Below are positions 20,697 through 24,668 of a DNA stretch of 27,733 nt, one piece after another. Where the stretch lies: assembly GCA_964462155.1 (NCBI GenBank), contig CAYWWH010000003.1, positions 1,211 to 28,943 on the forward strand. The letters run 5' to 3'. The position numbers and the translations under genes are program-made. Position 1 is the stretch's first letter. Every line of letters starts with the position of its first letter. This DNA is from an uncultured Candidatus Saccharibacteria bacterium (GTDB lineage: Bacteria; Patescibacteriota; Minisyncoccia; Phycocordibacterales; UBA12088). Below the pieces are notes generated by a model. It was not told the origin of the DNA, did no database searches, and was given only the letters and a program-made list of their open reading frames with translations.

Positions 20697-21476
20697 CTAG
20701 AGGGTGATCTCGATTTGTGCAGTCGCTTTCTTTTCTTCAATGTACTTTTGGATTATTTCTGCACTCTTTTGGTTAACAATATCAGTCCGTACTATCTCAC
20801 GAACCTGATCTAAACTGGGAGCCTCGTCTGGATTTACTGAGCCACTTGCAATGACCGCATCGTACGCATCCTGTATTTCTTGGTCTGTTACCGTAACATC
20901 TTTAATCGTTGTTTCTTCATCGAGAAGTTGACGAATGAGGAGTTCATTACGCATGTTCTCATCTAACTCTTCTTGAGAAATACCCATGGCATCTAACTGC
21001 ATCTTAAGCGCCTCTTCTCCACCTAACTGTTCGACAAGAGTCGTCTTCTCTGCAGCAAGTTGCTCCTCTGAAACAGTGTACCGCTTCTCTTCAGCCATCT
21101 GGGTAAGGAGTTTGAGGCTAATGAGGTCATTTAAAAGCTGGAGTTCAAATGCAGCGTCTTGTGTTGTATCAACTGCATTTTCTGGAAGTGTTTTTTTAAC
21201 TTGCTCAAGTTTCTTATCGAGCTCACCACGAGTGATTGTTATCCCATTCACTGTTGCAACAATACTCTCTGGATCAGCTGAACCGACTTCGTTTGATGAC
21301 ATACCTCCAATAACACCTGCCTTGTAGAGACCGAAAACAATTCCACCGATAATGAGTACAACAAGCAATCCCAGTACGAGACCTTTTTTTGATGCACCTT
21401 CTTTTTTTTCTTCGATGTACACCTTTTCTTCTACTGCCTCAGGTGTACTCTCTTGCGTTTGTAAACTTTCGTTCAT
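20697..21476 (-). CDS. Membrane-anchored SurA/PrsA N-terminal-domain chaperone-like protein (no PPIase domain seen)
   Basis: One TM, then IVATVNGITIT..EL, L..LI...LL.Q.A...., VT..EI...Y. No parvulin/FKBP motifs. Confidence 0.8.
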   Translation of the reverse strand: MNESLQTQESTPEAVEEKVYIEEKKEGASKKGLVLGLLVVLIIGGIVFGLYKAGVIGGMSSNEVGSADPESIVATVNGITITRGELDKKLEQVKKTLPENAVDTTQDAAFELQLLNDLISLKLLTQMAEEKRYTVSEEQLAAEKTTLVEQLGGEEALKMQLDAMGISQEELDENMRNELLIRQLLDEETTIKDVTVTDQEIQDAYDAVIASGSVNPDEAPSLDQVREIVRTDIVNQKSAEIIQKYIEEKKATAQIEITL

Positions 21477-21548
21477 AATTACATTACTAGAATCTAGTTG
21501 TTAAAGTATGTCCAAGAATACCACGGTCTCGTTTTAAGACCAAATATT

Positions 21549-22031
21549 CTATCCCTTAATGTATGCATCTCCTTCAAGTGTTTCGCCATCCTTAAGTGGA
21601 ATAAGGTTTAAACGTACACTTTTTCCATTCCAGAGAGCAGTAATAGTAACATTTTCTCCCGCTTCAAAGGTAACGCTAAACGGTGCATCAAAGGCCTCAC
21701 TCGGACATGTCTCACCTTCTAAAAGTGTACTAAAACGTATTTCGACTGATGAAGTACTATTTTCTCCAACAAAGAAAGGTTCTGCAATAAGGCGGTGACA
21801 TGATGTTGGAAGTGTTGCTTTTCCAGCAATAGTATGAATACCGTCTTTATACTGATGCTTTGCGGTTATAATCATATCGAGAGATTCTTGTGAAGTTGTT
21901 GCAATCACGCCAGAATCAGACTGTTCGCTCGGTGTCGGAGTTTGTATGAGTGTGTACACAAAAAATCCGAGTAAAAGAACGCACAGCGCTCCCACGGCAA
22001 TAATTGCTTTCGTGTTTAATCTATAGTTCAT
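21549..22031 (-). CDS. Hypothetical membrane-anchored/exported beta-rich protein
   Basis: N-terminal TM, Ser/Thr linker, and a beta-rich domain with two Cys (LPTSCH...TCP). Confidence 0.8.
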   Translation of the reverse strand: MNYRLNTKAIIAVGALCVLLLGFFVYTLIQTPTPSEQSDSGVIATTSQESLDMIITAKHQYKDGIHTIAGKATLPTSCHRLIAEPFFVGENSTSSVEIRFSTLLEGETCPSEAFDAPFSVTFEAGENVTITALWNGKSVRLNLIPLKDGETLEGDAYIKG

Positions 22032-22073
22032 AGTATTTTGTTACCCTAGTAATAGGAAAAATGTAAATAAACA

Positions 22074-22526
22074 TCACTTGTGTGGACTAATCTTTTTTTC
22101 GAGAAATCGTTCGACAAACCAAAGACCGACACAAACAAACAGTGTCAGAAACGTGGTGAAAGTCGCAATGGTGTAAAACTTGAAACCAACCGCAACTCCT
22201 ATAGCTGAGGAAACCCACAGTGCTGCAGCGGTCGTAAGTCCCTTGAGTTCATGCTGGAAAATAATGAGACCTGCACCAATAAAACCGATTCCAGTTACGA
22301 TAGAGCTTGCCATACGAAGAGGATCAATCCCCCCAAGTGGAGCATATGAGTGAAGTACACCCTCACCAATAATGATAAAAAGACAAGATCCTACTGAGAC
22401 TAATCCAAACGTACGCATACCTGCGTCCTTCCCCGCAAGGAGTCGTTCAAAACCAAGGAGTGCACCTAAAACAAGTGCGATAATGAGCTGAATGAAAATC
22501 TCTGATTCGCTCGAAAAAGGTGTCAT
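22074..22526 (-). CDS. MgtC/SapB family membrane protein (short, TM domain only)
   Basis: LGALLGFER...KDAGMRTF.LV..GS.LF, DPLRMASSIVTGIGFIGAG.I, GLTTAAALW...AIGVAVG. Confidence 0.95.
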   Translation of the reverse strand: MTPFSSESEIFIQLIIALVLGALLGFERLLAGKDAGMRTFGLVSVGSCLFIIIGEGVLHSYAPLGGIDPLRMASSIVTGIGFIGAGLIIFQHELKGLTTAAALWVSSAIGVAVGFKFYTIATFTTFLTLFVCVGLWFVERFLEKKISPHK

Positions 22527-22538
22527 ACTCTTAAAACT

Positions 22539-22567
22539 ATTCTAAGGAAAAAATGGATTTAGCACAA
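22539..22567 (-). promoter_or_regulatory. Predicted promoter of the mgtC-like gene
   Basis: TTGTGC (22567-22562), 17 nt, TAGAAT (22544-22539), 12 nt, ATG. Confidence 0.5.
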
Positions 22568-23392
22568 GTCATCTATCTCCTCAAATAGTCGTTTCATCAT
22601 TCCATGTGAGAGTCCAAGAGACTCAACAGTATCAGTCTTTTCCCGTATCTGCTTACAGAGAACGATACCTTGCTCCATGAGGCGACGCTTGTTTGCTTTT
22701 GAAAGGGTTGTAAGGCAAGAGACTGGATGCACACCGGTCTCTTCAATCATCTCTCGCAAGTTCCCTTTTGCTGGATAATCCCAACTTATAATCTTGAGAC
22801 CAACACATGCAGCGTAGACCTCAACCTGTTTTGTAAACTTGGTGTTTGTAATGAGTAATCTATCGGTGTAATCAGTAGGACTTCCACTTCCACTTTGTGA
22901 TGCAATATCTTCAAATCGAGCATGCACGTAGAGAGCAACCTTAATGTCCGACTTTACTCCCGTATTGTTGTGGTACTTAACTTCTGCTCCGATGCGCTCA
23001 TCCCCTCGTGTAGCCACAACATCAAGTTCGTGCTCCACACACCTCCCTTGGACAAGTACTCTAGTTGTAGCGTCATAGCCGAGCACTTTGTACATTTCAG
23101 CAAGAAAACTTTCAAACGGATACCCGCTCGGACCAAGCTCAAGGAGTGCATGTTTAACCGAGTACCGCGCTGCTACTGGTTTCTTAACTTGTCGAAGTCT
23201 CTGGAATGCAAGTCGATAAATGTCTTGCGTTCTGTCATCTTCACGAATCGATGATGCTATATCGCTCGTAATTACATCGGCAACAACTGGTTCTGCCCCA
23301 CTCTGTACGAGCGAACGAAACAATTTCTCAGGATGAAACTGTTCCCGCTCTCCATTTGCTTTAAGTACGAATACCTCGCTCTTACTTAGCAT
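22559..23392 (-). CDS. ATP-cone + Mrr-like PD-(D/E)xK restriction-endonuclease-domain protein
   Basis: N-terminal VLKANGEREQFHPEKLFRSL (ATP cone); ELGPSGYPFE.FLAE....LGY and HELDVVA...IGAEVK (D...ExK); small helical C-terminal domain. Start trimmed to ATG 23392. Confidence 0.82.
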   Translation of the reverse strand: MLSKSEVFVLKANGEREQFHPEKLFRSLVQSGAEPVVADVITSDIASSIREDDRTQDIYRLAFQRLRQVKKPVAARYSVKHALLELGPSGYPFESFLAEMYKVLGYDATTRVLVQGRCVEHELDVVATRGDERIGAEVKYHNNTGVKSDIKVALYVHARFEDIASQSGSGSPTDYTDRLLITNTKFTKQVEVYAACVGLKIISWDYPAKGNLREMIEETGVHPVSCLTTLSKANKRRLMEQGIVLCKQIREKTDTVESLGLSHGMMKRLFEEIDDLC

Positions 23393-23528
23393 AGACACGT
23401 AGAGCTGAAGCTTCTTGATCTTGTACTCCATTCCGTGCTCTAAACTGGTCTATTGAAACGACAACGAGCATGACGACCATGAACGCAAGAACGAGTGCGA
23501 GACGAAGATTATGTTTTCCTTGTTCCAT
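23382..23528 (-). CDS. Small (48 aa) single-TM protein (absent from ORF track)
   Basis: MEQGKHNLRLALVLAFMVVMLVVVSIDQFRARNGVQDQEASALRVYAK*. It fills the mnmA-nuclease gap, overlaps the nuclease start by 11 nt and has a promoter-like sequence upstream. Confidence 0.62.
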   Translation of the reverse strand: MEQGKHNLRLALVLAFMVVMLVVVSIDQFRARNGVQDQEASALRVYAK

Positions 23529-23570: not shown

Positions 23571-24668
23571 TTATCCAATAATCCCTCCTCCGAGGCACTT
23601 TTCACCTTGATACAAAACGACACTTTGCCCTCTCTGCACAAAGGGTTGTGGCTTGTCTAGCAAAAGCTCACAAGTTGTATCTGTACAAGATTTAAGAGTT
23701 ACACTAAAAAGCGGTTGTCTATACCTCAGTCGAGCCATACATGTTTTTGGAGGAGGTGATATCCAGTTACACTCTTGTAAGAGGATCGCACTTGTTGAGA
23801 CCCCCTCTTCCACATCACTGTTTCCAACCACTAAGATGTTTTTAGTAACATCTCTCTCTACGACGTAGTACGGTTTCGACGTCGGTGTTTTTTTGTGTAT
23901 GGTAAACCCGTGTCGTTGTCCAAGCGTGTACATCTGTGCACCATCATGGACCCCTATCACATCACCTTCCATGTTTAGCACATTCCCTTTTTTACTTTTG
24001 AGGTAATGAGATAAAAAATCTTTCATATCCACTTTCCCGAGAAAGCAGATGCCTTGGCTATCCTTCTTTTTTGCTGTAGGCAGTGTAAATCGGTCAGCTA
24101 AAACACGGACGTCACTCTTTTCAAATCCACCAACAGGAAAAAGGGTTTTACTCAACTGCTCTTGATTCAGAGTCCAGAGGAAGTAGGTTTGATCTTTTTG
24201 TGCATCTTTCCCTGTATATAGTTCATAGCGCTTTTTACTTCCCTCCTCAACTTCTCGCACTTGTGCATAGTGTCCCGTAGCTACGTGGGTATAACCATTA
24301 TCCAGAGCATAACGAAGTAAACCTCCAAACTTAATGTACTTATTACACATGACGTCGGGATTTGGAGTATTACCTCTTGCATACTCAGCGACTAGATACT
24401 CGACGACACTTTTCTCATACTCATGCGAAAGATCAATAGTATGGAACGGAATATGGAGGTGAGCAGCGACTCGCATGGCATCACGCCTTTCTTCGCGCCA
24501 TGAGCAAGGAAGCCAAGGAACACTCCACGTCTTTATAAAGGCGCCATGGACTGTGTGACCCTCTTCGAGAAGGAGTGCAGCAGCAACCGAGCTATCAACT
24601 CCCCCCGAAAGGGCCACCAAAACCCTAAAACGGGGACTGTCACGTTTTTTTTCCAAAATATGTGTCAT
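23571..24668 (-). CDS. mnmA: tRNA-specific 2-thiouridylase
   Basis: ALSGGVDSS, TPNPDVMCN, ATGHY, KDQTYFL, KKDSQGICF, TLGQR, LRYRQ, GQSVVLY. Confidence 0.98.
   Translation of the reverse strand: MTHILEKKRDSPRFRVLVALSGGVDSSVAAALLLEEGHTVHGAFIKTWSVPWLPCSWREERRDAMRVAAHLHIPFHTIDLSHEYEKSVVEYLVAEYARGNTPNPDVMCNKYIKFGGLLRYALDNGYTHVATGHYAQVREVEEGSKKRYELYTGKDAQKDQTYFLWTLNQEQLSKTLFPVGGFEKSDVRVLADRFTLPTAKKKDSQGICFLGKVDMKDFLSHYLKSKKGNVLNMEGDVIGVHDGAQMYTLGQRHGFTIHKKTPTSKPYYVVERDVTKNILVVGNSDVEEGVSTSAILLQECNWISPPPKTCMARLRYRQPLFSVTLKSCTDTTCELLLDKPQPFVQRGQSVVLYQGEKCLGGGIIG

Follow-up and report, generated by a model that had tools for sequence, protein, structure and literature searches.

The ATP-cones of ribonucleotide reductases (RNR) and of NrdR bind ATP, dATP or ADP, and binding alters the oligomeric state of these proteins (PMC9110341, PMC5794259). 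Functional work on ATP-cones has so far been confined to the reductases and the repressor NrdR. Ligand-gated nucleases are known from type III CRISPR systems, where Can2 and Card1 carry a small-molecule sensor fused to a PD-(D/E)xK nuclease. AF1548 of Archaeoglobus fulgidus (PDB 1Y88) is a structural-genomics protein with a nuclease domain and a C-terminal helical domain, and its function is unassigned. This study concerns a gene that brings these elements together. It lies at 22559..23392 on the minus strand of a 27,733-nucleotide (nt) stretch, called the window below, from an uncultured Candidatus Saccharibacteria bacterium (contig CAYWWH010000003.1). The gene encodes a protein of 277 amino acids (aa) in which an ATP-cone, an AF1548-like nuclease domain and a helix-hairpin-helix (HhH)-like domain follow one another. 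We propose that it is an adenine-nucleotide-switched cytoplasmic DNA endonuclease with a housekeeping role, in repair and/or in nucleic-acid breakdown for nucleotide and energy salvage, rather than in restriction or antiphage defence. We put the probability of this reading at roughly 0.55.

The gene had been described in a first-pass annotation, made by a model from the sequence alone, as an ATP-cone fused to an Mrr-like nuclease that might serve defence or nucleotide scavenging. The three-domain open reading frame (ORF) is real and was correctly placed by that annotation. Its architecture was borne out by the predicted fold, by domain matches at the level of the family and by conserved nucleotide-contact residues. 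Residue numbers below count Met14 of the longest, 290-aa ORF as residue 1, and coordinates are those of the window.

The ATP-cone

The ATP-cone domain comprises residues 8-79 (23156..23371, minus strand) and consists of a β-hairpin and four helices, with K11, E17 and K23 at nucleotide-contact positions. The protein was modelled with AlphaFold2 using 58 homologs as input (mean predicted local distance difference test, pLDDT, 89; predicted template-modelling score 0.78). In the model strands 8-10 and 16-18 form the hairpin "roof" and helices 21-30, 35-48, 55-69 and 77-84 form the four-helix bundle, which is the ATP-cone fold. The N-terminal 81 residues were superimposed by Foldseek on the ATP-cones of E. 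coli NrdR with a root mean square deviation of 2.0 Å. Streptomyces coelicolor NrdR, Aquifex NrdA and L. blandensis NrdB were also matched. The Pfam ATP-cone family (PF03477) scored 22.6-22.7 bits with the window protein (E 1.6e-4; cut-off 25.8 bits). When 45 diverse family members were scanned singly, 42/45 matched it at E<=1e-3, the best with an E of 1.3e-10. The cone seen in the first-pass annotation is thus upheld by the family matches, the NrdR-like fold of the model and the contact residues.

Mutation of V48, K50, E56 or K62 impairs nucleotide binding by S. coelicolor NrdR (PMC9110341). These residues correspond to V9, K11, E17 and K23 of the window protein, with identical spacing, so that its first 85 residues share with the NrdR and RNR cones both the fold and the V-x-K...E...K contact pattern. 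K11 is kept in 44/45 family members and K23 in 42/45, and E17 is invariant in the Patescibacteria set. The protein has KANG where many cones have KRDG, the Arg that follows the Lys being replaced by Ala. This is not considered disqualifying, because E. coli NrdR itself has KSND at the same place, with Ser in the Arg position. Since the NrdR contact residues are kept, the natural reading is that the nuclease would be gated by adenine nucleotides, as the first-pass annotation had proposed. By analogy with NrdR and RNR, a nucleotide-dependent change of oligomeric state is the likely mode of action.

What the cone would act on differs, as the output domain is a nuclease and not a Zn-ribbon or a reductase. 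The protein was rejected as an NrdR repressor. It has no Zn-ribbon, and its cone is N-terminal, whereas NrdR has a Zn-ribbon followed by the cone in about 150 aa. The NrdR model TIGR00244 matched the cone part only, at 14.3 bits (cut-off 124.65).

The nuclease domain and the linker

The PD-(D/E)xK nuclease domain, of the Mrr_cat or AF1548 N-terminal type, spans residues 89-204 (22781..23128, minus strand). The window protein scored 17.1 bits against Mrr_cat (PF04471; cut-off 21), and 40/45 diverse family members matched at E<=1e-3. Its catalytic core, H121-E122-x-D124...E137-V-K139 (22976..23023, minus strand), is invariant in the 45 diverse homologs. In this alignment, which reaches down to 33% identity, E94, H121, E122, D124, E137 and K139 are all invariant, and D124, E137 and K139 show no variation in either alignment made of the family. 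The catalytic residues of AF1548 were predicted as D38, E51 and K53 by Yooseph et al. (PMC1821046), and these align with D124, E137 and K139. H121 is Gln in AF1548. In the model the core strands are residues 107-115, 120-129 and 132-139, and the motif (E)...D...(E/Q)xK is carried on an α-β-β-β-α-β core. The intact D...EVK motif reported in the first-pass annotation is the conserved catalytic triad of the family. The nuclease core has AspBHI, MspJI, Can2, VC1899 and McrC as structural neighbours in Foldseek.

Residues 96-277 are homologous to AF1548 (phmmer E 7e-29, with the alignment spanning query positions 109-281; family profile E 2.7e-43). The model matched 1Y88 with an E of 1.3e-15 and a template-modelling score of 0.78. 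AF1548 homology covers both the nuclease and the C-terminal helical domain, so that the two proteins share these two domains, while AF1548, at 199 aa, lacks the ATP-cone.

"Mrr-like" is a loose name. The part of it that holds is the placement of the catalytic domain in the Mrr_cat family, and the protein also resembles Mrr and Type IV enzymes in having no methyltransferase partner. The domain is of the AF1548 type, however, and no Mrr_N winged-helix domain was matched in the window protein or its family using Pfam, the N-terminus being the ATP-cone. Mrr proper, a Type IV modification-dependent enzyme, was rejected because this reader is missing. The gene also differs from such enzymes in its setting, which is a fixed housekeeping synteny and not a mobile or defence context.

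Can2 and Card1 follow the same logic as the architecture described here and are structural neighbours, and Card1_endonuc was matched by one family member. They have a CARF sensor where the window protein has an ATP-cone, and the window gene has no CRISPR or defence context. The ligand of Can2 and Card1 is a second messenger, whereas that of the window protein would be a primary metabolite. By this analogy the protein probably works as a ligand-gated nuclease of the Can2/Card1 type in which a metabolite sensor replaces the CARF domain.

The cone and the nuclease are joined by the motif ELGPSGYPFE (residues 85-94; 23111..23140, minus strand), which ends in the invariant E94. No other stretch is as conserved across the family, and the search tool chose this one as its search pattern. 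It has the last cone helix on one side and, on the other, the first nuclease helix with E94. The last cone helix of NrdR contacts the outer-site nucleotide (PMC9110341). Because the linker ties this helix to the E94 helix, it is plausibly a direct allosteric path from the cone to the catalytic helix.

Two other observations were made in this part of the gene. At the cone-nuclease linker the coding sequence contains a terminator-like hairpin (23113-23130, minus strand). It is probably non-functional, as such sites occur in the region at chance level (3 found, 2.4 expected). Cysteine recurs at six positions within 22562-23041, half of them in the nuclease domain and half in the HhH-like domain. 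C118, C196 and C246 are present in 39-40/45 members and C138, C226 and C277 in 29-30/45, and position 138 is Val in the window protein. These semi-conserved cysteines may form a metal, Fe-S or redox site.

The C-terminal domain

Residues 205-277 (22562..22780, minus strand) form a C-terminal helical domain of the AF1548-like_C type with an HhH or Rad51-N-like fold. The window protein scored 14.3 bits against AF1548-like_C (PF22357; cut-off 23.9), and 31/45 diverse family members matched. The last 75 residues were modelled separately (pLDDT 81). The top Foldseek match was again 1Y88, followed, with weak E-values, by Rad51/RadA N-terminal domains, the HhH domain of DNA polymerase β, BAF, the Hel308 HhH domain and the C-terminal domain of the RNA polymerase α subunit. 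All of these belong to the HhH/SAM-like fold class. HHH_5 was matched by one family member in Pfam, and the C-terminal domain of 1Y88 is classed in SCOP as "Rad51 N-terminal domain-like". The assignment as an HhH-like, presumed DNA-binding domain is based on the consistent identity of the top matches, the HHH_5 match and the SCOP class, and not on a significant score. HhH-type domains grip the DNA backbone without sequence specificity. The small helical C-terminal domain of the first-pass annotation can now be named more closely as a homolog of the AF1548 C-terminal domain.

A restriction-endonuclease-fold nuclease followed by an HhH-type domain is also the module order of XPF, Mus81 and Hef. 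This layout suggests an alternative, in which the protein is a dedicated structure- or damage-specific repair endonuclease whose cone ties incision to the dATP needed for resynthesis, and which is partnered by the Cas4-like exonuclease, MGMT-like protein and uracil-DNA glycosylase (UDG) found downstream in most relatives. The HhH-type C-terminal domain speaks for it. The window protein has one small HhH-like domain, though, and not the canonical (HhH)2 dimerisation module, and the likeness is architectural only. No ERCC4 match was found at E<=1 in Pfam, and there was no match at the level of Pfam ERCC4 or Hjc for the window protein. An ERCC4 (XPF/Mus81) nuclease was rejected on this ground, the C-terminus being HhH-like by fold only. 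Dedicated repair is the alternative to which we give most weight, and we consider it unlikely. The neighbouring genes, described below, bear on it further.

Size and distribution of the family

Homologs of the protein numbered 3097 among 90%-identity clusters. Using 50%-identity clusters, 1095 matched at E<=1e-3 and 416 at E<=1e-30, and nearly all of the best 150 of the 1095 were about 280 aa long with all three domains. The homology is not due to chance, given the phmmer E of 1Y88 and the thousands of homologs. Family members occur in Patescibacteria (Paceibacteria and a metagenome-assembled genome labelled Saccharibacteria), in Bacteroidota (Carboxylicivirga, Cyclobacteriaceae, Flavobacterium, Sediminibacterium, Algoriphagus and Pontibacter), in Balneolaceae and in Chlamydiota (Criblamydia). 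Orthologs from culturable hosts include WP_237151220.1 of Pontibacter actiniarum and WP_176454803.1 of Criblamydia.

The family is catalogued, yet uncharacterised. Its database names are all automatic and include "restriction endonuclease", "ATP cone domain-containing protein", "ATPase" and "Holliday junction resolvase-like predicted endonuclease". Full-text searches of the open literature found no functional study or discussion of an ATP-cone/nuclease fusion, in agreement with what the first-pass annotation had stated, and nuclease fusions are not mentioned in the NrdR and NrdB papers.

Conserved gene order in Patescibacteria

About 100 loci with relatives of the gene were collected. A metagenome scan with the family alignment supplied 80 loci; a scan of genome contigs with the single protein gave 4. 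A simple ORF picker was used for gene calling in the window and in the first 94 of these loci, neighbours were labelled using jackhmmer seeded from Pfam-annotated proteins, and counts were made on 85 non-redundant loci.

The gene order sigma70-DUF8128-YceG-MnmA-[cone nuclease]-...-AlaRS (AlaRS, alanyl-tRNA synthetase) is common to 51/85 loci and persists down to about 40% identity. MnmA lies at most three genes upstream in 51/85. The median gap between the cone nuclease gene and the next gene on the same strand is 12 nt. Mean identity across 41 loci was 45% for the cone nuclease and 50% for MnmA. Its conservation is comparable to that of MnmA and is of the housekeeping type. The divergence of the two proteins gave a Pearson r of 0.78, which is driven by three close relatives, and a Spearman coefficient of 0.07. 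For the Patescibacteria of the window, the favoured reading is a vertically inherited core gene, supported by synteny and not by phylogeny.

The slot 3' of the gene is variable and holds MgtC, DUF7282, a Cas4/RecB-like PDDEXK_1 protein, an MGMT DNA_binding_1 protein or UDG. MgtC directly follows the cone nuclease gene in 16 loci. The count is also 16 for a stand-alone PDDEXK_1 nuclease as immediate neighbour. PDDEXK_1, MGMT or UDG is found within four genes downstream in 30/43 syntenic loci, the 43 being those with at least two downstream genes. In most of the related Patescibacteria these genes make up a compact repair block (Cas4-like PDDEXK_1, MGMT DNA_binding_1, UDG and sometimes HD_4) directly after the cone nuclease or MgtC, as in loci L001, L008, L016, L026, L029, L031, L073, L080, L086 and others.

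The frequency of these genes, with PDDEXK_1 as immediate neighbour in particular, favours the dedicated repair endonuclease introduced above, as does an AddA/UvrD-PDDEXK helicase-nuclease that is the divergent neighbour in one locus. Against this, the window itself has no repair block, the next genes being those for MgtC, a hypothetical protein and a SurA-like protein. The conserved block is moreover long, and adjacency within it is perhaps historical. At 21476-22559 in the window, and in its closest relatives L005 and L006, the SurA-like gene and two M16 peptidase genes are present instead of a repair block.

Operons in other phyla

In Bacteroidota and Chlamydiota the cone nuclease gene heads an operon, followed by a β-CASP metallo-β-lactamase (MBL) nuclease, a thymidine/AMP-phosphorylase-family protein and a phosphoribosyl pyrophosphate (PRPP) synthetase. 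The operon is extended by a hypothetical protein, PPK2 and a P-type ATPase in four chromosomal loci, among them L012, L099 and L100. Two Cyclobacterium-like genomes have the operon, one with L012 and L100 and the other with L099. It also occurs on plasmids of Pontibacter (L095, NZ_CP021236) and Criblamydia (L096, NZ_LK031773), the latter copy being flanked by CzcA, a P-type ATPase, phosphoketolase, glycogen phosphorylase (GlgP) and acetate kinase. Shorter operons were seen as well, with the order cone nuclease-β-CASP-AAA_28 in L011 and L013, and with AAA_28 and no β-CASP gene in L014. The operon flanks often include genes for a universal stress protein (Usp), SDF, an Na+/H+ antiporter, phosphofructokinase, phosphoketolase, GlgP or acetate kinase.

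In Bradyrhizobium diazoefficiens the homologous trio of MBL, Prs and thymidine-phosphorylase genes (bll3115-3117) is induced by microoxia, alongside Usps, phosphoketolase and a CzcA transporter (PMC6515984). The operon looks like an undescribed stress-linked module for nucleotide and energy salvage. The nucleotide scavenging suggested in the first-pass annotation gains support here, through the β-CASP, phosphorylase, PRPP synthetase and PPK2 partners of Bacteroidota and Chlamydiota. None of these partners is encoded in the window.

The same partners bear on a dedicated repair role from both sides. β-CASP enzymes include the DNA-repair nucleases SNM1 and Artemis, which is in its favour. Taken together, though, the partners in these phyla are metabolic and not repair enzymes.

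A broader version of the salvage idea is that the cone nuclease gates an undescribed stress pathway from nucleic acid to nucleotides and energy, of which Patescibacteria have kept only the nuclease as a core gene. Hypoxia, starvation or Mg2+/metal stress would alter the adenylate or dATP signal, and the cone would free the endonuclease. The β-CASP exonuclease would then degrade the fragments to nucleoside monophosphates, which the AMP-phosphorylase-like enzyme, the PRPP-synthetase homolog and PPK2 would turn into ribose phosphates and ATP. The resulting ATP could supply the neighbouring P-type pumps. In genome-reduced Patescibacteria the nuclease, paired with MgtC, would turn over imported or damaged DNA. 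We regard this pathway as speculative and hold it to be rather unlikely.

Ion-transport neighbours

The operons are located in ion-transport and stress islands. Many loci have the cone nuclease gene directly beside a P-type ATPase gene, often with overlapping reading frames. In others it is beside CusB/HMBD, ZIP, ArsR, ArsC, DUF3347, Usp, SDF or Na+/H+ antiporter genes. Neighbours with a role in cation or heavy-metal transport were noted in L011, L014, L037, L062, L067, L071, L075, L079, L091, L097 and L098. The Patescibacteria counterpart of these neighbours is MgtC (22074-22526 in the window).

These neighbours raise the question of whether the protein is primarily a nuclease at all. It could be a nucleotide-sensing DNA-binding regulator like NrdR, or a regulatory partner of MgtC and of P-type cation ATPases, coupling ion transport to adenylate or Mg2+ status. 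NrdR repressors are the only characterised ATP-cone proteins outside RNR, and P-type ATPase genes adjoin the cone nuclease gene, often overlapping it, in L011, L014, L071, L075 and L091, and also in L019/L020. The CusB/HMBD, ZIP, ArsR and ArsC neighbours, and MgtC in Patescibacteria, fit such a role too. The PD-(D/E)xK catalytic residues, however, are all invariant in 45 diverse members, which argues for retained catalysis. The protein has no sequence-specific DNA-binding domain, as the HhH domain binds the backbone, and we know of no precedent for the regulation of a pump by a soluble nuclease-fold protein. A regulator without a primary nuclease function is therefore judged improbable.

Search for an association with defence

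A nuclease with a nucleotide sensor could also act against phages. In this case the cone would detect dATP or ATP pools altered by infection and free a non-specific nuclease, leading to abortive infection or to methyltransferase-independent restriction. The sensor plus PD-(D/E)xK layout parallels Can2/Card1, and the family is named "restriction endonuclease" in databases. PADLOC was run on the protein and on 148 immediate neighbours from 85 loci. The protein matched only the nuclease domain of ZorD, weakly (E 0.01), which is a further point for defence. Among the neighbours the only recurrent match was that of Cas4 models to the stand-alone PDDEXK_1 nuclease (19 members, E 1e-10 to 1e-12), which has no further cas genes beside it. 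The remaining neighbour matches were singletons of generic folds (UvrD, amylase). Two loci have a defence-type gene at some distance, namely an AbiE pair about 8 kb away in one plasmid locus and an Mrr_N-Mrr_cat gene about 4 kb away in another.

No methyltransferase or defence system was found next to the gene in about 100 loci. Relatives were sought in phages using tblastn, with 0/50,697 phage records positive, and none was found in a pattern scan of 2.9 million IMG/VR viral contigs. A comparable pattern scan of metagenomes produced at least 597 confirmed relatives. Plasmids carried a relative in 2/72,556 cases (tblastn). With the PADLOC, phage, IMG/VR and plasmid searches negative or nearly so, the gene is neither defence-like nor mobile-like in its behaviour.

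In the window, a scan of all large ORFs found no DNA methyltransferase or defence gene, and the statement in the first-pass annotation that the window has no methyltransferase is correct. MnmA is no exception, as Pfam calls it "tRNA methyl transferase" in error, for historical reasons. A component of a restriction-modification system was rejected, there being no methyltransferase and no mobile context. A defence island was rejected as the main reading on the PADLOC searches of the protein and its 148 neighbours together with the phage, plasmid and IMG/VR searches.

An antiphage nuclease is accordingly the least probable of the functions considered, and we give it very little credence. PADLOC found no system member among the neighbours except the Cas4 models, which fell on a repair-type nuclease without cas1 or cas2. 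The window has no methyltransferase, the slot between MnmA and AlaRS is fixed in 51 loci with conservation close to that of MnmA, and relatives are absent from GenBank phages and IMG/VR and nearly absent from plasmids. Neighbours in other phyla are transporters and metabolic enzymes. The defence role raised in the first-pass annotation was not sustained by the co-localisation test, the phage searches or the fixed synteny in Patescibacteria.

Gene start and neighbouring genes in the window

The longest ORF on the minus strand is 22559..23431 (290 aa). Met14 of this ORF (23392) is a better start than 23431, because homologs are mostly 276-282 aa long and it is their residues 3-6 that align with query residues 18-22, where the alignments open. 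In addition, a conserved upstream micro-ORF terminates on top of the same ATG. The micro-ORF (23382..23528, minus strand) encodes a 48-aa single-pass membrane peptide, and its stop overlaps the Met14 start in the sequence ATGCTAAGTAA. The hydrophobic peptide, MEQGKHNLRLALVLAFMVVMLVVVSIDQF...VYAK, is encoded between MnmA and the cone nuclease gene and is kept in the closest relatives L005, L006 and L015. This conservation suggests a real micro-protein that is translationally coupled to the nuclease gene.

The MgtC-family gene (22074..22526, minus strand) starts 32 nt downstream of the cone nuclease gene on the same strand. Co-transcription and operon structure were inferred from gene spacing plus hairpin scans. 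On this basis MgtC is probably co-transcribed with the cone nuclease gene. The window MgtC-family protein, at only 150 aa, is limited to the membrane domain and lacks the soluble C-terminal part found in Salmonella MgtC. The next gene encodes a membrane-anchored hypothetical protein of 160 aa (21549..22031, minus strand) and is the last before a terminator-like hairpin at 21542-21524. The three genes are on one strand, and a terminator-like hairpin is found only after the third. The family of the 160-aa protein adjoins the cone nuclease gene in 12 other loci. Its identification as DUF7282 was rejected, with no significant similarity and no Pfam match.

Upstream, the conserved neighbour MnmA (tRNA 2-thiouridylase) is encoded at 23571..24668 (minus strand). 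An IS200-like Y1 transposase-family gene (223 aa, PF01797; 24676-25347, minus strand) is located between YceG and MnmA. It is a lineage-specific insertion into the conserved block, since YceG and MnmA are adjacent in the syntenic relatives L005 and L008.

The large ORFs of the window are all of the housekeeping kind and comprise those for an M23 peptidase, GltX, MurG, FtsW, MraY, VanY and a ZIP transporter, followed in our inventory by S9, L13, RpoA, S4, S11, S13, AlaRS, two M16 peptidases and the SurA-like protein, and by the 160-aa hypothetical protein, MgtC, the cone nuclease, MnmA, the IS200-like Y1 transposase-family gene, YceG and a DUF8128-like protein. The window sequence is present in freshwater-sediment and sludge metagenomes.

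Proposed function

In the housekeeping role that we favour, the cone would bind an adenine nucleotide and shift the oligomeric state as in RNR and NrdR. It would keep the nuclease off at normal ATP, and cutting would be permitted once there is a change in the adenylate or dATP state. A gated first cut would, under energy or oxygen stress, feed nucleic acid into nucleotide recycling, and the operon arrangement of Bacteroidota and Chlamydiota fits such a step. The repair and salvage roles are backed by different phyla, with repair genes in Patescibacteria and salvage enzymes in Bacteroidota and Chlamydiota, and need not be exclusive. The window organism is probably reliant on imported nucleic acids. 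Restraint of a cytoplasmic nuclease by ATP or dATP would sensibly allow such an organism to process DNA while keeping its chromosome safe.

Several points weigh against this proposal. Nucleotide binding, nuclease activity and their coupling are all predicted from sequence, and the three Pfam scores of the window protein are all below the curated cut-offs. Position 17 is variable in the wide set (E in 21, V in 13 and A in 7 of 45), and the NrdR Glu to which E17 corresponds is the one that recognises the amino group of adenine. For the repair role the argument is gene order within a long syntenic block, where adjacency may not reflect shared function. The rank correlation between the divergence of the cone nuclease and that of MnmA is flat without the three closest relatives. 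The window and its close relatives have no β-CASP, phosphorylase, Prs or PPK2 gene, so that the salvage role is extrapolated across phyla. That the gene repeatedly lies beside those for cation and heavy-metal transporters and MgtC is unexplained by the model, and so are the semi-conserved cysteines.

Significance

The label "restriction endonuclease" is probably misleading for this family, and it would falsely raise the number of defence genes counted in Patescibacteria. The family is a syntenic core gene in Paceibacteria, which have minimal genomes and are thought to depend on scavenged nucleotides. Culturable carriers among the Bacteroidota (Pontibacter, Carboxylicivirga and Flavobacterium) make the hypothesis directly testable. 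An ATP-cone on a nuclease would add a third functional setting to the two known from RNR and NrdR. Should the broader stress pathway be true, the protein would also be the first primary-metabolite sensor that directly gates a nuclease. For the housekeeping endonuclease proposed here, a nuclease under an ATP-cone switch would, if true, extend the ATP-cone mechanism to DNA metabolism. It would also be an example of a nuclease gated by a core metabolite in place of a defence second messenger.

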